Shown here: in pieces, positions 790 through 38,182 of the stretch | Numbering within the stretch: position 1 is the first letter of the stretch | How the letters are laid out: each line of letters starts with the position of its first letter | Assembly (NCBI GenBank): GCA_040904625.1 | Contig: JBBDTC010000105.1 | Span: forward strand, 1 to 42,044 | Direction of reading: 5' to 3' | From: Gammaproteobacteria bacterium | Lineage (GTDB): Bacteria; Pseudomonadota; Gammaproteobacteria; Ga0077536 | Length of the DNA stretch: 42,044 nt | The notes under the pieces: model-generated | Seen by the model: only the letters and a program-made list of their open reading frames with translations | Database searches by the model: none | What the model was told of the DNA's origin: nothing | Program-made: the position numbers and the translations under genes

Positions 790-1611
790 TCAGGTTACAC
801 GATTCGGCCCGGTGACGATCAGCTCCCGCGCTGGCGCCGCAGCCCCCTTGGCGAGCGTGTACGTCGTCTTCACAGGGGTCATCAAGAAGTCTTCGAAGGC
901 GGCTCGAACGGGCTTCGTATCGTTGATCGACAGGACGAAGCGGCCCCTAATGCCGGCGAGCTGCGCGGACAGGGCCTCGAAGTCGGCGCGGCCGAAGACG
1001 CCCTTGCCGTAGTCGTCCTCGGAGCCCTCGTAGGGCGGGTCGAGGTAGAACAAGGTGCCCGGCCGGTCGTAGCGGGCGATGAACTCGCCATAGGGCAGGC
1101 ACTCGATCACCACCCCGGCGAGGCGCTCGTGCAGGGCCTCCAGCATCGGCTGCAGCCTGGTCACATCGAAACGCCCCGGCCGCTCCACCGCCACCCCGAA
1201 GGTCCGCCCGCTCACCTTGCCGCCGAAGGCGGTGCGCTGGAGATAGAGAAAGCGCGCCGCTCGCTCCAGATCGGTGAGCGTCGTCGGGTCCGTCCGGCCG
1301 AGCCGCTCGAACTCGCGCCGGCTGGTGATCTGAAACCGCAGCATCTCGAGGAAGGCCACATAGTGCCGCTGGAGCACCCGAAAGAACCCGGCGACATCGC
1401 CCGACAGGTCGTTGATCACTTCCGCCCTGGGCGCCAGGCGGCGCCGCAGGAACACCCCGCCCATGCCGACGAAGGGCTCGGCATAGGTGGTGTGCGGCGT
1501 GGCCTCGATCAGCTCCACGAGCCGGCCCGCCAGGTTGCGCTTGCCGCCGATATAGGGGGCCACGGGGCGCACCGGCTCGACGGGGCGGAAATTTGACTCC
1601 ACATTCGACAT
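790..1611 (-). CDS. dam: Dam-family (D12 class) N6-adenine DNA methyltransferase
   Basis: Motifs YIGGKR, EPFVGMGGVF (SAM binding) and LDPPY. It occupies the late-end position that mom occupies in Mu. I prefer the ATG at 1609-1611 over the GTG at 1621-1623. Confidence 0.8.
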   Translation of the reverse strand: MSNVESNFRPVEPVRPVAPYIGGKRNLAGRLVELIEATPHTTYAEPFVGMGGVFLRRRLAPRAEVINDLSGDVAGFFRVLQRHYVAFLEMLRFQITSRREFERLGRTDPTTLTDLERAARFLYLQRTAFGGKVSGRTFGVAVERPGRFDVTRLQPMLEALHERLAGVVIECLPYGEFIARYDRPGTLFYLDPPYEGSEDDYGKGVFGRADFEALSAQLAGIRGRFVLSINDTKPVRAAFEDFLMTPVKTTYTLAKGAAAPARELIVTGPNRVT

Positions 1612-2536: not shown

Positions 2537-5500
2537 TCACCTCTTCAGTGTCGTGAGAACTAGCTGACGGGCCGATATATGAAATTCCCCGTCCACCGAA
2601 GACTGGACCTCGATGTAATATGTTGGCGATCCGTCTGGAGGTGATTCGTCCACATACTGAAGCGAGTAGGTAATGCGCTTCTCCGTCCCCGAATGGACTA
2701 AATAGACGAAGGCGGTAGTTCTAATATCGGTTCCGTCCCGGCGTATATAAAGCGTGACCCGGCAGTCAGAAGACGACTTCCTGAACTGCGCGGTGAACAT
2801 TATGAGAACCTTGTAGTCGCTCGCCGTCGTGATCGTTGCGCTTTGGGCCTCCAGTCTGGTGAATCGGTCTACCGTTTCATCCGACCCTCCTGTGAACGCG
2901 CTTGCCGCTGCGGTGGCCGCCTCAAGATCGAGGTTGCCAGTCTCCACCCCGCCGACCGAGATCTCGTCGGTGGTGATGGTGCTCGCAGCGATATTCGTCG
3001 CCGTGATCGTGTTGACATCGAGGTGGTCGCCGGTGATCGAACCATCGACGATCAGCTCGCCGCCGAAGGGCTCGCGGAGGTAGACGTCATCGAAGTAGGT
3101 GGTGGCATCGCCGCCATCATTAAGCACGAGGAGAGCCGGGCGCGCCGAAGCCGCACCAGTGGGAGCAGTGGCCTTGACGGTGAGTTTCTGATATTCGCTG
3201 GTTGGGGTTATGTCATCACTATTGTCTATGGTTATCAAGGATGCAAACGAGTTAAACCACGCGATCCTCACGCGGGCTTGGTTTGCTGTTCCTGCTCCTG
3301 CCTTGGCCCATGCTTCCAGATAGACACTCTGGCCCTCGGAGACCTCAATCTCTTGCTGCACAACCCCGTTGGCCGTCTGGCCGGTCGGGTCATACTGCAA
3401 AGCATAGGAGCCCGACCGCTGCTCGCTCGATGCGATGCTCCACGTTCCCCCGGTGCCGCCATTGGCAGTGCTCGGGTCCAGAACGCCAGTCTCGAACCCG
3501 CCGTTCTCGAACAGATTTTCGAAGTTGGCGATGGCCAGCTTTTCGGCCGTGATGGCTTTCGACGCGATCAGGTCGGCGCTGATGGTCCCGGCCGCGATCT
3601 TGGCAGCCGTCACGGCCTCGGCCGCCAGCTCGTCGGTGCTGATCGCGCCGGCCGCAATCTGTCCCGCCGTGATGGTGTCCGCGGCGATCTCGCTGGCGGT
3701 AATGGTGTTCGCCGCGATCTTCGCCGCCGTTACCGCGTTGGCCGCGAGCTTGGGCGTGCTGATGGCATCGTCGGCAATCTCGGTCTCGGTGATCGAGCCC
3801 GCAGCGACGCTGGCATCGGCCACCTCGGCGCTCCATGCCGTGCCGTTCCAGACATAGAGCTTGCCGTCGGTCGTCAGGTAGACCGTTTCGCCCGCGACAC
3901 CCGAAGCCGGCAAGGATGACACCAGGCGAACCGGCGACAGATCCGAGGCGAACTTCGCCAGCGTCACCGCCTCGTCGGCCAGCTTGGCCGCCGTCACCGC
4001 GGCGTCGTTGATCTTCGCCGCCGTGATCGCGTTGTCGAGGATGTCCAACGCGCCGATGCGCCCGTCGAGCGTGGTGACCGGCATCCACAGCGACCAGTCC
4101 GTGGAGTAGCCCTCGCGGCTCTGGAAACGCCCGCGCACCTCGTAGTCGGTGAGCGACTGGAGTCCGGACAGTATGATCAGCTCCTCCGCCTCGGGCTCGC
4201 TGCTCGAGGCTTCCGCGATCTGGCTCGCCTGCGACGGCCGCCGGTGCTCCACATGAATCGCGACCACGTCGGCGTCTTCCGGGGCGGTCCAGTAGACCCG
4301 GATCGCCGGGCGCAGCGCCCCGCTGTCGCTGGGGTGCAGGGAGGCCTCGACGGAGAACCCGTCAACCACCTTGGGATCGGGTCGGTCGGTCACCAGCGAG
4401 CCGTCGGCCTCGGGGATCAGGTCGGTGGCCGCGTCCCAGTCGTAATCGGTCTCGTCGACCTCGGTGAGGGACACCGTGGTCGACAGGTCGTGATAGTCCT
4501 CGACGGCATCGACCTCGAAGAGCTTGTCGACATACCCGTTGCGCTCGCTGGTCCATTCGACGATGTCGCCGGGCTCCAGCCCCCAGCACGACGGCGGCAG
4601 CGGCAGCTTGTGGCGGCGTTCCTTGCGAGCCCGGGCGAGCATCTGCTGCATCATGCGCTGGGCATGATTGCCCGACTGGATCATCGGAGCGTCGAGGTTG
4701 CCCGACACGCGCCGGCCGTCGATCGCCACGCCACCGGGGAACTCCCGCGGCGGCGCCACCTTGGGCACCCAGCCATCGATCGGGCTGGTGTACTTGCCCG
4801 TGACGTGGTTGATGCGCTGTTCCAGCGGCCGGATGGGGCGGAACACGTCCTCTTCATCGGCCCGCACCATCCCGTCGTCGAAGGCGAGCACCGGCAGGCC
4901 CGGCGCCCCGACGTAGAGCTTGTAGACCCCGCCGACCTCCACGAACCTGCCGTCGCAGGCCTTGACGATCTCGCGCAGTGTCTCCAGCGGCTCGGTGTCG
5001 ACGGTGATCTCGGCCCCGCCGTGGAACTGCGGCTCGCCGTCCACCTCGACGTCGGCCTCGTTCATGGCGGCGAACCACACGTCGAGCGGCAACGCCTCGG
5101 CCGGGGTGTCTTCCAGTCCGTAGAAGTGCTGCGGATCGCCGTTGTGGTCGGCCACGCGGATGCCGCGCAGCATGTTGTAGGCGATGAGGGGCAGGTTGGC
5201 GCTGAACTCGTGCGTCGACAGGTCGTCGAAGCGGTGCGTCCCGGATCCGCCGGACACGGTGGAGTCCTTGCGCGGGTCATAGAGCGCGATGCCGTCCACC
5301 ACGAAGCGCCAGCGCATCGGGCTCGGCGTCAGCTCGGGCTCGTACATGGTGTTGGTGCGGACGTAAGCGATGCCTCGCCCGACGAAGCCCGACGTCCAGG
5401 GCCGCTGCGGATGGCTGGCAAGATGGGTGACGGCGAAGCTGTCGGCGCTCGTCTGGCTGCCATCCTTGAACACGAAATGCAGGTACTCGCGGCCGTCCCT

Positions 5501-5956
5501 GGCATAGGACGTGAGTTCATTGCCGCGGAACGCCCCGCCCGCGACCCAGCTTTCGTCCTGGCCGTCGACGAACACCTTGACCAGTCCCTCGCAAGGGTGG
5601 TCGGCAATCGCGATGCCGTCGACGAAGTGCTGGTTCTTGTCCCCGTGCGACTCGCCGTAGAACAGCGACCCGGCGGTGACGGCGCGGCCGACGATGAGCG
5701 ACTGCGGCACATCGGCGTCGATGCGGATGTCGAGTTCCACGCCGCCGGCGGGCTTCTGCTGCTTGGGCGCCAGCAGCTTGTTGGCGAGGTAGGACGCGCC
5801 GATCGACAGGGCTGCGGTGATGGCGGCCGTGCCGACAGCGGCGGCCGTGCCGGTCAGCCCGATGAAGCCGACGATGGCGGCCGATATCGGATCGGCCTGT
5901 GCCGGGGCCGAAGCGAAGATGAGCGCGGCGACCAGGGTGAGAACGAAGATCATCAT
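2537..5956 (-). CDS. Tail host-specificity / central fibre protein (J-like, about 1139 aa)
   Basis: The start MMIFVL overlaps the upstream stop (ATGA at 5953-5956). It has an N-terminal hydrophobic segment, an Fn3-like stretch (YWTAPEDADV...YEVRGRF), 10-aa tandem repeats, a CBM-like segment (NLFENGGFETG...SGSYALQ) and a distinct C-terminal domain. Confidence 0.75.
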   Translation of the reverse strand: MMIFVLTLVAALIFASAPAQADPISAAIVGFIGLTGTAAAVGTAAITAALSIGASYLANKLLAPKQQKPAGGVELDIRIDADVPQSLIVGRAVTAGSLFYGESHGDKNQHFVDGIAIADHPCEGLVKVFVDGQDESWVAGGAFRGNELTSYARDGREYLHFVFKDGSQTSADSFAVTHLASHPQRPWTSGFVGRGIAYVRTNTMYEPELTPSPMRWRFVVDGIALYDPRKDSTVSGGSGTHRFDDLSTHEFSANLPLIAYNMLRGIRVADHNGDPQHFYGLEDTPAEALPLDVWFAAMNEADVEVDGEPQFHGGAEITVDTEPLETLREIVKACDGRFVEVGGVYKLYVGAPGLPVLAFDDGMVRADEEDVFRPIRPLEQRINHVTGKYTSPIDGWVPKVAPPREFPGGVAIDGRRVSGNLDAPMIQSGNHAQRMMQQMLARARKERRHKLPLPPSCWGLEPGDIVEWTSERNGYVDKLFEVDAVEDYHDLSTTVSLTEVDETDYDWDAATDLIPEADGSLVTDRPDPKVVDGFSVEASLHPSDSGALRPAIRVYWTAPEDADVVAIHVEHRRPSQASQIAEASSSEPEAEELIILSGLQSLTDYEVRGRFQSREGYSTDWSLWMPVTTLDGRIGALDILDNAITAAKINDAAVTAAKLADEAVTLAKFASDLSPVRLVSSLPASGVAGETVYLTTDGKLYVWNGTAWSAEVADASVAAGSITETEIADDAISTPKLAANAVTAAKIAANTITASEIAADTITAGQIAAGAISTDELAAEAVTAAKIAAGTISADLIASKAITAEKLAIANFENLFENGGFETGVLDPSTANGGTGGTWSIASSEQRSGSYALQYDPTGQTANGVVQQEIEVSEGQSVYLEAWAKAGAGTANQARVRIAWFNSFASLITIDNSDDITPTSEYQKLTVKATAPTGAASARPALLVLNDGGDATTYFDDVYLREPFGGELIVDGSITGDHLDVNTITATNIAASTITTDEISVGGVETGNLDLEAATAAASAFTGGSDETVDRFTRLEAQSATITTASDYKVLIMFTAQFRKSSSDCRVTLYIRRDGTDIRTTAFVYLVHSGTEKRITYSLQYVDESPPDGSPTYYIEVQSSVDGEFHISARQLVLTTLKR
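3527..3805 (-). repeat. In-frame tandem repeats of about 30 nt (10 aa) inside the host-specificity gene
   Basis: The peptide motif (A/D)xxAITAxKIAA recurs about 9 times (AISTPKLAANAVTAAKIAANTITASEIAADTITAGQIAAGAISTDELAAEAVTAAKIAAGTISADLIASKAITAEKLA). A second short block lies at 3945-4040. Confidence 0.8.
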
Positions 5957-10734: not shown

Positions 10735-11670
10735 TCACGTCAGCGTGATCGTGAACTGATCGTCGCCGGAGTCGAACTTCGGGCTCAAGCTGAGCGGCCA
10801 CTCGACGATGCCCTGCTGGTTCTCCAACCCGGTCATGCGCTGAACCTCGCACTTCGGCGCGGCGATGGTGGAGATCTTGCCCGCAGCGGTGCCGTGGGTG
10901 ATGCTCACAGCGACTTCCGTCTTGTCCTTGGCCGCGGCGAACGGGTCGAAGGTGGTGAGCGGTACCGCCTCGACACTGGCCGAGATCACCTCGGCGCGAT
11001 CGACGATCAGAATATCCTCGCGCCCGATGAGCAGCCGCGGCTGTACATCGTTGGCCAGGTCGAGCTGGAAGTTGCGCAGCACCAGGGACTCGCCCCCGAC
11101 CGTGAAGGCCGGCGTATTGGCGTGGCTGCCGACGATCGGCGCCTCGAAGCCCGACAGGTCGGGCGTGACGCGCGTCTCTTCCGACGGCGCGACATAGAGC
11201 CCGGTGAAGGTCCAGCGGATGCGCGGCACCCCTTGCGCCGGAATCTCGATGACGCCCGTTCCGCGGGCCCCCAACAGGACGTGCCGGGTGCCGCCCTTCC
11301 AGAAATAGAAGGTGGCGCTCTCGTGATCGTCCGACACCGGGTTGTAGACCACGTCGACGCCCGCCTGGGTCGTTTCGGCAAGCGCGCAGGCCCGCGCCAG
11401 CACGCCCCATTTGGGCGCCGTGCCGGCCGTGCCGGAGCCCACCAGCTCGGTGGCGCCTGAGAGCACCGCCCGGACGGCCGCCACCAGCGTGCCCTGGTTG
11501 CCGAGCTGGGCGAACTCGAGCTCGCGGCCAACGTCCTCGCCTTCCTGGGGGCGCAGCTGCACGTCCGTCATCAGCATGCCGTCGCTACCGACGGGCTCGG
11601 CGTCGGTGCCGTAGGTCGTCTCGATCTTCGCGAGTGCAATGGTCGAGCGCCACTTGATTGGGTCAGGCAT
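10735..11670 (-). CDS. Major tail tube protein
   Basis: 311-aa ORF directly upstream of the chaperone pair. The composition looks beta-rich. Confidence 0.6.
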   Translation of the reverse strand: MPDPIKWRSTIALAKIETTYGTDAEPVGSDGMLMTDVQLRPQEGEDVGRELEFAQLGNQGTLVAAVRAVLSGATELVGSGTAGTAPKWGVLARACALAETTQAGVDVVYNPVSDDHESATFYFWKGGTRHVLLGARGTGVIEIPAQGVPRIRWTFTGLYVAPSEETRVTPDLSGFEAPIVGSHANTPAFTVGGESLVLRNFQLDLANDVQPRLLIGREDILIVDRAEVISASVEAVPLTTFDPFAAAKDKTEVAVSITHGTAAGKISTIAAPKCEVQRMTGLENQQGIVEWPLSLSPKFDSGDDQFTITLT

Positions 11671-11839
11671 TGGACGATCCCTCCTTCACGCCCTTGCCTT
11701 TCTGCCCGCCTGCTCCTTGCGGAGAGGGGGTGGGGGGAGCTGCCGGGCGCTCCTTGCGCGGCTCCGTCCACTGCCGCCGCTCGAGCTTGCCGTCCTTGCG
11801 AGCATACGAGCCGCCCTTCCTGGGTGTGGTTCTGGTCAT
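11663..11839 (-). CDS. Small basic 58-aa protein carrying a degenerate copy of the GC-rich element
   Basis: MTRTTPRKGGSYARKDGKLERRQWTEPRKERPAAPPTPSPQGAGGQKGKGVKEGSSNA. The ATG forms an ATGA overlap with the upstream stop at 11836-11839. It is below the ORF-track cutoff as a stand-alone ORF. Confidence 0.4.
   Translation of the reverse strand: MTRTTPRKGGSYARKDGKLERRQWTEPRKERPAAPPTPSPQGAGGQKGKGVKEGSSNA
11705..11740 (+). repeat. Degenerate fourth copy of the GC-rich hairpin element
   Basis: ctgctccttgcggagagggggtggggggag shares the GGGGGTGGGGGG tail and a CTCC-TTGC-GGAG hairpin with the copies at 27881, 36209 and 37891. Confidence 0.45.
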
Positions 11840-13945: not shown

Positions 13946-14020
13946 TGGTAGCGGGGGCCGGGTTCGAACCGGCGACCTGCAGGTTATGAGCCTGCCGAGC
14001 TACCGCTGCTCCACCCCGCG
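13946..14020 (-). tRNA. tRNA-Met (anticodon CAT), initiator-like
   Basis: The reverse complement is CGCGGGGTGGAGCAGCGGTAGCTCGGCAGGCTCATAACCTGCAGGTCGCCGGTTCGAACCCGGCCCCCGCTACCA. It folds as a 75-nt cloverleaf with a 7-bp acceptor stem, GAGC/GCTC D stem, GCAGG/CCTGC anticodon stem, loop CTCATAA, GCCGG/CCGGC T stem, and an encoded CCA. Confidence 0.85.
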
Positions 14021-19958: not shown

Positions 19959-19993
19959 GCTGTCTGACCGATCTTGATGCCTCGCCGCCATGA

Positions 19994-20105
19994 TAATCCC
20001 GCCGTCAAAGGGGTTTTGAAGGGGCTGGGGGGCCAAAGGCGGCTCCGGTGCATCCACCGGGCCTCCAAGCCGCCCGGAAGCCGCTGTGGGCGTTCTGTGC
20101 GGCTC
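19994..20105 (+). repeat. Copy X of an intergenic repeat of about 110 bp (34-bp perfect core)
   Basis: TAATCCCGCCGTCAAAGGGGTTTTGAAGGGGCTG (19994-20027) is identical to 24409-24442. About 75 further bp align imperfectly. Confidence 0.8.
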
Positions 20106-24389: not shown

Positions 24390-24408
24390 GCGGCCCACCC
24401 GGGCACGT

Positions 24409-24520
24409 TAATCCCGCCGTCAAAGGGGTTTTGAAGGGGCTGCAGGCCGCATGGCGGCATCCGGCGCAGCACGGGGCCATAACGCCGGCCCGGAGGCGCC
24501 GTGGGCGCCCTGTGCCGGTG
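24409..24520 (+). repeat. Copy Y of the intergenic repeat of about 110 bp
   Basis: It has the same 34-bp core as 19994-20027. It fills the only large gap (24390-24555) in the lysis-to-portal gene string and contains the hairpins GCCGC-ATG-GCGGC and GGCGCC-GTG-GGCGCC. Confidence 0.8.
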
Positions 24521-27367: not shown

Positions 27368-28404
27368 GACGTCTTGCCGCGCCGCTCATCGTCCACCCGG
27401 GCCTGACCGGCCTTCCATGCCTGCCACGCGATATAGGCGCCGATCGCCACCGCCACGGCGCAGACGGCCAGGCCGTATTCGGCGACGAACCAGCGCACCG
27501 GCCGCAGCCAGTCGCCGATCTGCCCGACCGTGTCGGCCACTTGGCCCGCCATGCCGACCGCGCCGCCCACCGCCACGCCGCCGCCGGCGGCGACGTTCTT
27601 CAGGCTGGCATCGGCGATGCGGCTTTCCTTGGCGAGACCGGCGAGATTGGCCTCCGCGCGCTGCACCGAAATCGGGCGCCGCTTGCCCCGGTCGATCGCC
27701 TCCAGCGTCACCGGCCCGGCGATACCGTCGGTCTCGATGTCGTTGTCGGCCTGGAACGCCAGCACGGCGGCCCGAGTGCGTGCCCCGAAGCTGCCGTCGA
27801 TGTAGCCGACCTGATAGCCGAGCTCATCCAGCCGCTGCTGCAGGATCTCCACCGCGACGCCCCTGCTGCCCATCCTGAGCAGCGCTCCCTCCCCCCTTGT
27901 GGGGGAGGGCTGGGGTGGGGGGGCAACCGCCACCGCGTCATCGGGCTCGGCCCGCCGATCCGCCGCCGGCGCCCGCCGGATGCCCAGCAGCCGCACGTGC
28001 GGATAAGTCGTGACAGTCACCGCATCGCGTTGGTTGCCGCCCAGAACCTCCACCCTGTCGCCGGCCCACCCGAGGAAGAACGCGACATGCCCCTCCGCCG
28101 GGTTCTTGCCGCGCGAGAACACGGCCACATCGCCCGGTCGGGCATCGCTCTCCACGACCGCCTTGCCCCACTTCATGTAGGAGCGAGCCGCCAGCGAGCG
28201 GGTCGATCGCACGCCGCCGCGCTCCAAGCAGGCGCCGACGAAGGCGGCGCACCACGGCACCTCGTCGTGCTCGACCCACTTGTGGCCGAGCTGGCCGTAC
28301 ATCGCCATGATGACGGGGTTGTCCTTCGCGCCGGCGATCTCCTTCGTCCCGAGGAGCTCGCGCGCGATGGTGAGGTGCTTGGGGTCTGCGTCGCTGTTCG
28401 TCAT
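27364..28404 (-). CDS. Endolysin: CHAP/NlpC-P60-like domain, PG_binding_1 domain and C-terminal TM anchor
   Basis: VPWCAAFVGACL (Cys) and EGHVAFFLGW (His); LQQRLDELGYQVGYIDGSFGARTRAAVLAFQ (peptidoglycan-binding repeat); C-terminal hydrophobic segment YGLAVCAVAVAIGAYIAWQAW. Confidence 0.8.
   Translation of the reverse strand: MTNSDADPKHLTIARELLGTKEIAGAKDNPVIMAMYGQLGHKWVEHDEVPWCAAFVGACLERGGVRSTRSLAARSYMKWGKAVVESDARPGDVAVFSRGKNPAEGHVAFFLGWAGDRVEVLGGNQRDAVTVTTYPHVRLLGIRRAPAADRRAEPDDAVAVAPPPQPSPTRGEGALLRMGSRGVAVEILQQRLDELGYQVGYIDGSFGARTRAAVLAFQADNDIETDGIAGPVTLEAIDRGKRRPISVQRAEANLAGLAKESRIADASLKNVAAGGGVAVGGAVGMAGQVADTVGQIGDWLRPVRWFVAEYGLAVCAVAVAIGAYIAWQAWKAGQARVDDERRGKTS
27881..27923 (+). repeat. 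GC-rich hairpin element, copy in the endolysin linker
   Basis: AGCGCTCCCTCCCCCCTTGTGGGGGAGGGCTGGGGTGGGGGGG has a 9-bp stem, CCCTCCCCC/GGGGGAGGG. It is read in frame as PPPQPSPTRGEGAL. Confidence 0.8.
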
Positions 28405-35992: not shown

Positions 35993-38182
35993 TTACTCGT
36001 TCAGCGATGCCTCTCCGAAGTCGGCGAGCATTGCTGCCCGGGCCCGGAACTCCGGGCTCGTCTCGTAGCCGCCGAGCCACAGCGCCTGGTCGGCCGGAAC
36101 ATCCGCCCCGCCATCGATTGCTGCGCGCAGCTCCAGCGCCCGCCGGAACCGCTGCGTGGCGGTCTCCGGCAGCGGCACGACATTTGCGGTGCTTCCCTCC
36201 CGCTCCGTAGCGCTCCCTCCCCCCTCTTGGGGGAGGGCCGGGGAGGGGGCCGCGGGCGGGCCGGATGTCGCATCCCCCGCAGCATCGAGATCGCGCGTCG
36301 TGTAGCCTGTCGATCGCTGCGGAAACTGGGCCAGGTTGGCCTGCTTGTCCCGGGCGAGCCCGAGCACCCCGTCGATCATGTCGCGCGGCTTGATCCTGGC
36401 TGCCTCGCGCCGGATCTCGGCCGTGCCCGACCGGATCAGGTCGGCTTGGGCCTCGCGGGCCGCCTGGACGGCGGCGCGCGGATCGATGCCGGCGCGCTCC
36501 GAGCAGATCGCTTCGCCCAGGAACGCGCCGGTCTCCCCCTCGAACGCATAGAGCGTGCCGTAATCCTCCGGGTCCTGGCGGCAGAACACGCGCGTGCCGG
36601 GCATGATCTCGGGCGCCAGATAGTAGGCACCGTCGAGCCGGATGCCCTGCTTGGTCACCGTGCGATAGCCATCCGAGCCCGCGACGGGTGCCAGCAGTAG
36701 ATCGAGCGCATGCTGGTTCTCGATCCGGCGCACCGCGCCCGTATGCGAGGCGAGCCGCTGGAACGGGCTCTGCCCGGCCAGGCCGCCGTGCGCGCGGTGC
36801 TGGTACTTGTCGGTGCACCAGTCGTCGATCGCCGCCTGCAGCTCGCCCGCCGTCAGGTCGACGCAGAAGGCCTTGTCGGCGCTCTCGCCCAGCCGGGCGG
36901 CGAACGCCTTGCGCCCTTCGATCTGCTTGCGCTCGGCCACGTTGTGCCCGATGAAGCCCGGCAGTAGCGGCATGAGGCCGTGCTGCATCGTGTGGATATG
37001 CCGCTCGACCAGCCCCTTCTGCTCCGGCGAGAAGGGCGCGGTCACGTCCTGCCGGATGCCGAGGCTGATGAGCGCCCGGACGAAATGGTGGCTGGTGAAG
37101 TCCGAGCCGTTGTCGGTGCGCAGGGTTTCCGGCACGCCCCAGGCGAGAATTGCCCGCCGGGTCAGCAGGAGTGCCGCTTCGGTGCGCGCCGTGCGGCTGA
37201 TGTAGCCCATCATCCGGCGCGACCACACGTCGACCACCACGTAAAGATTGAACCGGCCGTCGGCGCACAGCACGTCGGCCGGCGAGGCGTCGATCTCCCA
37301 CAGCTGGTTGAGCCGGTTGACGAAGGCGTAAGCGTTGCTGCCGGACAGCCGTTTGCTGCCCTTGAAGGCGTCGGGGTCGGTCAGCGCCTGCAGCGCCACG
37401 CCGTTCTTCGACTTCCAGTCGCAGATCCACCGCTGGAAGGCGCGCGGGGATGGCAGCGGCTTGGCGCCGGACGGCGTCGCGAGTTCGGCCCCGAAGCGGG
37501 CCTCGATTAGGTCGCGCACGTGGTGGGCAGTCAGGAACGGCTGCTTGACCAGCAGCCCGCCGATGTAGCGCGCCACGGCGCCGTCCTCGGCGGTCTGCAG
37601 CACGCAGGCGCGCGCCCGGCGGGCATAGCCGGTGGCCACATCGTGCCAGCGCCCGTCGTCGCGCATGGAACGCCAGCGGGCGAGCGACCGTCGCGAGGCA
37701 TAGGCGACCTCGCGCCTGACCCACTCGGGCGTTTCGATCCGGCCGGCGTTGTAGGCGGCTGCGAAGCCCTCGTCGGCGCCGCGCGTGCCGAGCGCCCGGT
37801 TGGCGGCATAATGGGCGTCCGCCAGCGACAGCAGCATCAGGCGGGCATCGCGCCGCAACACGTCGCGCTCTTTCAATTCGTGGGGGCTCGGCTCCCCTCC
37901 CCCTCGCGGGGAGGGGCCGGGGGTGGGGGGCAGGGCAGGGGCAGTCGCCGCCTTCAGCACCCTGGCCTTGAGTTCCGACCGCGCCGCCGGCGGCAGCAGG
38001 GAGACATGGTACTCCGCCCCGCCGCCGCGCCCCTTGCGCGCCCGCGCCAGCGGTTCTCCGAGAGGTGACAGCCGCGTCGCCCAAACCTCTTCCTGGGCCA
38101 GATCGTTCACCCGGCGCTTGCTCGTCGGCAGGCCCGGCAGCCGCGCGTCGGCGATCTCCTGGGCCGTCATCCACTCGCTCAT
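35993..38182 (-). CDS. DDE transposase (MuA-like, 729 aa)
   Basis: N-terminal Mu-type winged helix (WMTAQEIADARLPGLPTSKRRV) and an rve core with WEIDASPADV, TDNGSDFTS and GLVERH. Confidence 0.85.
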   Translation of the reverse strand: MSEWMTAQEIADARLPGLPTSKRRVNDLAQEEVWATRLSPLGEPLARARKGRGGGAEYHVSLLPPAARSELKARVLKAATAPALPPTPGPSPRGGGEPSPHELKERDVLRRDARLMLLSLADAHYAANRALGTRGADEGFAAAYNAGRIETPEWVRREVAYASRRSLARWRSMRDDGRWHDVATGYARRARACVLQTAEDGAVARYIGGLLVKQPFLTAHHVRDLIEARFGAELATPSGAKPLPSPRAFQRWICDWKSKNGVALQALTDPDAFKGSKRLSGSNAYAFVNRLNQLWEIDASPADVLCADGRFNLYVVVDVWSRRMMGYISRTARTEAALLLTRRAILAWGVPETLRTDNGSDFTSHHFVRALISLGIRQDVTAPFSPEQKGLVERHIHTMQHGLMPLLPGFIGHNVAERKQIEGRKAFAARLGESADKAFCVDLTAGELQAAIDDWCTDKYQHRAHGGLAGQSPFQRLASHTGAVRRIENQHALDLLLAPVAGSDGYRTVTKQGIRLDGAYYLAPEIMPGTRVFCRQDPEDYGTLYAFEGETGAFLGEAICSERAGIDPRAAVQAAREAQADLIRSGTAEIRREAARIKPRDMIDGVLGLARDKQANLAQFPQRSTGYTTRDLDAAGDATSGPPAAPSPALPQEGGGSATEREGSTANVVPLPETATQRFRRALELRAAIDGGADVPADQALWLGGYETSPEFRARAAMLADFGEASLNE
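36209..36249 (+). repeat. GC-rich hairpin element, copy in the transposase C-terminal region
   Basis: AGCGCTCCCTCCCCCCTCTTGGGGGAGGGCCGGGGAGGGGG. The first 16 nt are identical to the endolysin copy. It is read as PSPALPQEGGGSA, a different frame from the other copies. Confidence 0.8.
37891..37930 (+). repeat. GC-rich hairpin element, copy in the transposase N-terminal linker
   Basis: GCTCCCCTCCCCCTCGCGGGGAGGGGCCGGGGGTGGGGGG, read as PPTPGPSPRGGGEP around residue 90. Confidence 0.75.

Follow-up and report, generated by a model that had tools for sequence, protein, structure and literature searches.

The DNA analyzed here, a contig of 42,044 nt (JBBDTC010000105.1, assembly GCA_040904625.1) assigned to the Gammaproteobacteria and called the window below, carries three copies of a GC-rich repeat unit of ~37 nt, all of them in frame within minus-strand open reading frames (ORFs). 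One copy lies in an endolysin gene with CHAP and PG_binding_1 domains and two lie in the gene of a Mu-type transposase; on the basis of these genes, we read the window as that of a Mu-like phage. The closest protein relatives named come from the Hyphomicrobiales (Aestuariivirga, Bauldia, and Parvibaculaceae). GC content in the window is ~0.61–0.72, the minus-strand genes are tightly packed, and the coding share is 87.5% according to a gene caller using log-likelihoods of GC at third codon positions (GC3). The same caller, which reproduced the operon layout of the window, provided all coding calls, including those in foreign loci with GC ≥ 0.58; it replaced a test of coding status by the longest spanning ORF, which was dropped as misleading in high-GC DNA. 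A repeat search of the window recovered the three sites as one family (27881–27921; 36209–36249, 90% identical; and 37888–37928, 71% identical). The G-rich strand of the copies is the plus strand and thus the template strand of the gene, while the C-rich strand is sense, and the reading frame of copy 2 differs by one from that of copies 1 and 3. The initial annotation, made from the sequence alone, had described these three copies correctly in their common orientation, their in-frame position in minus-strand coding sequence, the peptides they encode, and the deviating frame of one of them.

Each unit consists of a C-block, the G-block that pairs with it, and, after 2–3 nt, the mirror image of this G-block, each 9 nt long (CCCTCCCCC / GGGGGAGGG / GGG(T/A)GGGGG, or CCCCTCCCC / GGGGAGGGG / GGGGTGGGG in copy 3). 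The G-rich run that had been taken for a tail on a mere hairpin is, judged by this layout, no appendix but the integral third block of the element, and the unit is better described as a three-block triplex/G-quadruplex motif. Its layout is that of a purine-motif intrastrand triplex, in which the third block can pair antiparallel to the purine strand. The third block is interrupted by T in copies 1 and 3 and by A in copy 2, as the triad rule predicts (G against G:C, T or A against A:T). Among 133 listed viral copies, retrieved in a search that left the interrupting base free, it was T in 85, A in 40, and C in 8, so that T or A occupied the position in 94% of cases vs. 54% in the background, where the base following GGGG is C in 46%. 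The free end of the third block in the IMG/VR matches is nearly always [T/A]GGGGG. The copies also have the composition of a G-quadruplex hairpin, with four G-tracts of at least 3 G, short loops, and a 5′ C-rich part complementary to the first two tracts. As single-stranded DNA, the motif can by its sequence form a hairpin, a purine-motif intrastrand triplex, or a G-quadruplex.

The encoded segments have the features of ordinary interdomain linkers, and one explanation would be that they are nothing else: Pro/Gly-rich linkers produced by selection on the peptide or by GC-rich composition, with an incidental likeness between their nucleotide sequences. Copy 1 encodes endolysin residues ~161–175, in the linker from CHAP (folded to ~residue 144) to PG_binding_1. 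In the AlphaFold2 model of the endolysin, the predicted local distance difference test score (pLDDT) is <50 for residues 149–172 and no secondary structure is present over residues 145–175, and in an alignment with 16 homologues most of them have a 29-column gap at the site. In the transposase, copy 3 encodes residues ~84–97, past the N-terminal helix-turn-helix domain, and copy 2 residues ~644–657, in the C-terminal variable linker; both sites are linkers of variable length. The translated segments are typical of linkers and lie in predicted disordered sequence. Folding is compatible with this explanation as well. The perfect 9-bp stems reported in the initial annotation were predicted for all three copies with ViennaRNA, which models the hairpin only and leaves triplexes outside its scope, and the predicted mRNA hairpins reach −21 to −27 kcal/mol. 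Against dinucleotide shuffles, though, their stability does not stand out (z = −0.3 to −1.45), and since any C-run followed by a G-run folds equally well, hairpin energy is weak evidence.

Other results make the explanation by ordinary linkers very improbable. A degenerate hairpin pattern matched the window at the three sites only, compared with 0.02 matches expected from dinucleotide shuffles of the 42-kb window; within the window, the motif is thus far above the random frequency that the initial annotation had named as a possible refutation. A 37-nt family profile built solely on copies from other genomes (261 foreign copies, mostly intergenic) matched copies 1, 2, and 3 with E = 1.5e-9, 3.2e-8, and 1.9e-5. 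The codons are not those of the surrounding genes: the element uses the rare CCC, GGG, GGA, AGG, and CGA where the window prefers CCG and GGC, and the log-likelihood of the 45 element codons is −61.9, compared with −42.4 ± 5.0 under the codon usage of the window (p = 2e-4). In 120 homologous transposases, identity to the window is 0.05 at the element residues of copy 3 and 0.12 at those of copy 2, compared with 0.47 overall. The constraint on the window copies is at the level of the nucleotides and not of the peptide, as the initial annotation had argued: one copy is read in another frame, the codons are atypical, and the same profile matches intergenic copies in unrelated genomes. The atypical codons and the frame difference of copy 2 rule out ordinary peptide-level linker conservation.

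By its block structure, the unit is identified as a GC-rich member of a family of short interspersed bacterial repeats known as BoxC, PIT, or triplex motif (TMECO). This repeat has been on record for about three decades and, to our knowledge, has no assigned function. Of 5426 complete genomes, 5409 contain its E. coli variant, with a median of 17 sites each, and one K-12 copy lies upstream of fabI, presumably near where BoxC was first noted (envM/fabI). The "family of four" of the initial annotation is not private to one genome but part of a pan-bacterial family already described, as BoxC/PIT/TMECO (PMC4666352) and as HPG1/HPG2 (PMC5100583). The TMECO pattern, CCCTCNCCC N3-6 GGGNGAGGG N3 GGGNGAGGG, has 3610 occurrences in 262 proteobacterial genomes (Holder et al. 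2015, PMC4666352); that study traces the motif class to the E. coli "BoxC" repeat and the "PIT elements" of Maher's group, and cites earlier work on the motif by Hoyne and Maher. BoxC is listed as an E. coli repeat of 56 bp with 32 copies (Cozzuto et al. 2008, PMC2267715), and the same E. coli sequences have been read as a G-quadruplex–hairpin–duplex switch, HPG1/HPG2 (Kaplan et al. 2016, PMC5100583).

The window copies share with BoxC/PIT/TMECO the succession of a C-block, a 3–6-nt loop, a complementary G-block, a 2–3-nt loop, and a second G-block, and the T or A of the third block opposite the A:T pair that a purine-motif triplex requires. Three blocks, loops of ~3–6 and 2–3 nt, and stems of at least 8 nt are found in all three copies. 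In both cases, the element is ~35–37 nt long, multi-copy, dispersed, and at times arranged in inverted pairs; with three copies in 42 kb, it is clearly over-represented in the window. Copies 1 and 2 have one mismatch each to the TMECO pattern (first loop N5), where no such match is expected, and copy 3 is in a shifted register; because the window contains no exact TMECO match, its copies are a variant of the family and not TMECO proper. A single A interrupts the blocks of the unit (G5-A-G3 or G4-A-G4), and its third block is a mirror image, whereas the blocks of the E. coli motif are GGGAGAGGG and GGGTGAGGG; the second loop has 2 nt instead of 3 nt. The GC-rich unit also covers a broader range of phyla than TMECO, which was reported from 262 genomes of Proteobacteria. 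HPG1/HPG2 represent the same element under another structural reading, with four G-tracts, loops of 1–3 nt, and a C-rich region on the 5′ side; the window copies, of the form G5-A-G3-CT-G4-T-G7 and similar, have tracts of 4–7 G vs. 3 G in HPG1/HPG2. The preference for T or A at the last loop is predicted by the triplex reading but not needed for a quadruplex. A literature search by the literal motif sequence gave irrelevant matches only, and a tRNA alone passed the Rfam gathering score in the window, the best match over copy 1 being a miRNA model with E = 0.39. A BLAST search with the element in a collection of cultured phages gave no match, most likely an effect of the low-complexity filter. 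Coordinates of the copies and of the other features discussed are collected in Table 1.

Table 1. Repeat copies and associated features in the window and motif sites in its Mu-like relative L246
Feature	Position	Strand	Details
Repeat copy 1	27885–27921	+	C-block CCCTCCCCC 27887–27895; G-block GGGGGAGGG 27901–27909; loop CT(G); mirror block GGGTGGGGG 27913–27921
Repeat copy 2	36213–36249	+	C-block 36215–36223; G-block GGGGGAGGG 36229–36237; mirror block GGGAGGGGG 36241–36249, A replacing T
Repeat copy 3, shifted register	37892–37928	+	C-block CCCCTCCCC 37894–37902; G-block GGGGAGGGG 37908–37916; mirror block GGGGTGGGG 37920–37928
Endolysin gene, 346 aa	27364–28404	−	Pfam CHAP 47–124, PG_binding_1 182–237; order CHAP, linker, PG_binding_1, C-terminal helices
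Mu-type transposase gene, 729 aa	35993–38182	−	Pfam HTH_Tnp_Mu_1 13–74, rve 290–386, Mu-transpos_C 495–556
Doubtful fourth copy	11705–11740	+	Imperfect hairpin and near-mirror run GAGGGGGTGGGGGGAG
58-aa ORF holding the doubtful fourth copy	11663–11839	−	Uncertain coding status; not called by GC3 caller; no Pfam match
Motif sites in L246	4–34, about 557–580, 2237–2273, 3353–3390		Same orientation as window copies

Exact matches to the GC-rich pattern were found in at least 120 viral stretches from IMG/VR and in at least 120 bacterial genome stretches (one genome per species), numbers that are indicative only because both samples consist of listed matches chosen by a window-derived pattern and about a quarter of the listed viral loci are homologous clusters resembling gene transfer agents (GTAs). 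The listed matches include Alphaproteobacteria (Sphingomonas, Methylobacterium, Bradyrhizobium, Hyphomicrobium, Rhodobacter, and Asaia), Betaproteobacteria (Variovorax and Comamonas), and Gammaproteobacteria (Pseudoxanthomonas, Luteimonas, and Halothiobacillus), as well as Deltaproteobacteria, Chloroflexi, Planctomycetota, and Nitrospirae; single contigs from metagenome-assembled genomes (MAGs) are labeled Bacteroidales, Thermotogae, and Bacillota. The count of intergenic and in-frame copies that had been proposed as a check placed 200 of the 245 listed foreign copies outside called genes and 45 inside, and 21 of the latter are robust, lying well within high-scoring genes, in both orientations. 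The intergenic share of the family in the listed sample is about 80–90% and the genic share about 9–18%. Between 38 and 45% of the intergenic copies lie within 30 nt of the upstream stop codon; family-wide, both orientations to transcription are found, and the distance from genes varies. The BoxC/PIT/TM family is thus predominantly extragenic, in agreement with the literature, but a minority of its copies is truly genic. As a separate observation, the intergenic copies of the genome loci (L126–L245) lie between convergent genes in 19 cases and between divergent genes in 7, an excess that points either to promoter regions being avoided or to 3′ ends being favored.

Stop codons occur in just 2–11% of copies for any given frame, and the motif is therefore translatable in almost any frame. 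In ThiC of an uncultured alphaproteobacterium MAG (L202), an in-frame inverted pair, 1302–1338(+)/1368–1405(−), lies in a segment of 65 residues where Caulobacter ThiC (3epm) has 12 (+53 aa). GltB of a Gemmataceae MAG (L155) contains another in-frame inverted pair, 3390–3426(−)/3436–3472(+), with 31 residues at the site vs. 5 in 7mfm (+26 aa). Further in-frame copies were found in proteins read, from their sequence alone, as GcvPB, phage terminase, and portal proteins. The behavior of the motif in the window and in these ThiC, GltB, terminase, and portal examples is that of the Rickettsia palindromic elements (RPEs): unrelated ORFs harbor a palindromic repeat that keeps their frame, is itself read in more than one frame, and is tolerated as additional surface or linker peptide. 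RPEs are ~100–150 bp long, AT-richer, and confined to Rickettsia. The unit is ~37 nt, consists of G and C save for one T:A pair, has a third mirror block, is mostly intergenic, and is found across phyla. The comparison with RPEs in the initial annotation hence holds as a description of behavior and fails for the length of the element and for its predominantly intergenic location. Repeats in coding genes of R. conorii are cited by Cozzuto et al. 2008 (PMC2267715).

In E. coli, the motif is reported as exclusively intergenic, and no phage, plasmid, or transposon was found to carry it (PMC4666352), whereas the window copies reside within genes of a Mu-like phage, in frame. Intergenic location is a reported property and not a structural criterion of the family, and all three window copies are genic. 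Our literature search on in-frame palindromic elements returned no report for the BoxC/PIT/TM family; the element is known, but its coding, phage-borne location appears to be new in the literature searched, and, as far as these searches show, in-frame copies in housekeeping and phage genes have not been described there. A wider generalization is possible, although we hold it tentatively and consider it on balance doubtful: BoxC/TM triplex repeats would not be strictly extragenic but would keep a steady in-frame minority (the genic share given above), often as inverted pairs, in ThiC, GltB, GcvPB, terminase, portal, endolysin, and Mu transposase, and would thereby form a GC-rich, pan-bacterial counterpart of RPEs that creates Pro/Gly-rich linkers de novo and possibly marks domain boundaries as recombination-prone in modular phage proteins.

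The explanation that we favor, with a probability of roughly 70%, is that the unit belongs to the BoxC/PIT/TM family of interspersed, structure-prone repeats and persists in the phage genes as a tolerated linker passenger. Copies of the repeat are scattered over many bacterial phyla, their phages, and GTA-like clusters, mostly in intergenic spacers. Where a phage leaves hardly any room between its genes, a copy that arrived by insertion or copying could persist only where it is harmless, in frame and in disordered linkers. With the C-rich strand as sense and few stop codons, it is translated into Pro/Ser/Gly-rich disordered spacers that the proteins would tolerate. The presence of the motif on phages and GTA-like clusters provides a possible vehicle for its spread across phyla, and translated copies in linkers and loops illustrate how structure-prone DNA can turn into protein sequence. 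The occurrence of the same motif in genic and intergenic positions and in either orientation offers natural test cases for the effects of triplexes and G-quadruplexes on replication, transcription, translation, and recombination. For annotation, recognition of the motif accounts for many odd inserts of the 'PSPxxGEG' type and for spurious small ORFs in GC-rich genomes.

Several points weigh against the passenger explanation. From a genic share of ~9–18% in the listed sample, one would not expect each of the three strong copies to lie in a gene (0.18^3 = 0.006), and the underlying coding and intergenic calls rest on a crude GC3-based caller and on samples of listed matches. In E. coli, no triplex formed by the motif was detected in vivo (PMC4666352). 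No relative above 58% (transposase) or ~50% (endolysin) identity was present in the databases searched, and at this distance no empty site was seen beside a filled one for the window copies. The alignment of orthologues without the insert suggested in the initial annotation accordingly gave part of what was hoped for: the orthologues have non-homologous, mostly shorter linkers, but a clean empty site was not obtained. Presence and absence among relatives, on the other hand, favor the explanation as evidence of gains at different sites, as do the in-frame copies of ThiC and GltB and the junctions of GTA-like clusters described below. The copies are absent from four related Mu-like transposase loci (L121–L124). 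Another Mu-like relative (L246, a JGI 3300037465 contig of 4375 nt with a transposase 56% identical) holds three clear copies as well as a remnant reduced to the hairpin. The C-terminal transposase linker, which bears copy 2 in the window, contains a copy here too, read in the other frame; the remnant is in the N-terminal transposase linker, one copy is intergenic, and another occupies the end of the contig, 5′ of its first gene. Across the window and L246, the orientation is uniform, with the C-rich strand sense in all seven copies; the events are perhaps not independent, and the uniformity could reflect selection or a directional process instead of neutral passengers.

This uniformity, together with the position of all three window copies exactly at interdomain linkers, would be expected if the copies were selected as nucleic acid structures, either as mRNA hairpins that pause ribosomes at domain boundaries or affect mRNA decay, or as triplexes or G-quadruplexes of the template DNA strand that act as a pause site or a recombination hotspot aiding module exchange at domain junctions. 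The stable hairpins predicted are in line with such a role, and the E. coli motif has been linked to local genomic instability (PMC4666352). We nevertheless consider selection for structure, the main rival explanation, unlikely. Purifying selection alone would equally leave copies in linkers, most orthologous proteins lack the motif, the hairpin energies do not exceed those of shuffles, and the family as a whole shows both orientations and variable distances from genes. Moreover, the earlier work summarized in PMC4666352 is reported there to have found neither promoter or terminator activity nor an in vivo triplex footprint for the E. coli motif.

Inverted pairs raise a different alternative, that of an element similar to REP/REPIN or to miniature inverted-repeat transposable elements (MITEs), copied in trans by a dedicated transposase, with inverted doublets as the mobile form and single copies as remnants. 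Such pairs are frequent, as in ThiC and GltB above, and E. coli K-12, with 23 copies, has 5 pairs (PMC4666352). The junctions occupied also differ between homologous clusters: in IMG/VR, copies are present in RcGTA-like structural clusters at four intergenic junctions, namely capsid/adaptor, from one head-completion gene to another, ahead of the major tail gene, and behind the tape-measure gene (L001 2104–2136, L006 6095–6128, L007 1746–1779, and L016 10411–10445). Like REP/REPIN, the unit is a short GC-rich palindrome with many copies, mostly intergenic, often near the 3′ ends of genes and at times in inverted doublets. Unlike REP/REPIN, it is near-identical across phyla and not species-specific, and the same core in many phyla is hard to square with lineage-specific RAYT/REP pairs. 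The GTAG/CGTC tag of REP/REPIN is absent from the 5′ end, where the 132 genomic copies and the window share merely a conserved CT. Within 2.5 kb of the copies, the genes that recur are GTA or phage structural genes and include no family of transposases, although a RAYT would act in trans. The window copies themselves are singletons in one orientation. Taken together, copying by a dedicated transposase appears quite improbable, less so than ordinary linkers but more so than selection for structure.

A fourth member of the family in the window, proposed in the initial annotation, could not be upheld beside the three copies that exceed chance by far. The profile matches the site at 11705–11740 over just 9 nt, with E = 75, and its fold does not differ from shuffles (z = −0.01); we rejected it as a family member, and it may be at best a decayed relic, perhaps an intergenic one. 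The 58-aa ORF around it has a codon-position GC of 0.61/0.66/0.76, compared with about 0.7/0.5/0.9 in neighboring genes. It is Lys/Arg-rich, has an ATGA start/stop overlap, and falls in the 165-nt gap (11671–11835) from a major-capsid-like gene to the next gene.

Three further features of the window were noted. A tRNA-Met gene with anticodon CAT (13946–14020, minus strand; Rfam 60.9 bits) is flanked by phage structural genes. A direct repeat of 64 nt with the core TAATCCCGCCGTCAAAGGGGTTTTGAAGGGGCTG is present in two copies, 19980–20043 and 24395–24458, which are 81% identical and 4.4 kb apart; they flank genes of terminase and portal size, and a regulatory or packaging-related site is possible. 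The longest gene (1139 aa, 2537–5956) contains periodic internal repeats of 120 nt and 30 nt at 3591–3807 and 3953–4031, a periodicity that fits, as expected, a tape-measure-like protein.

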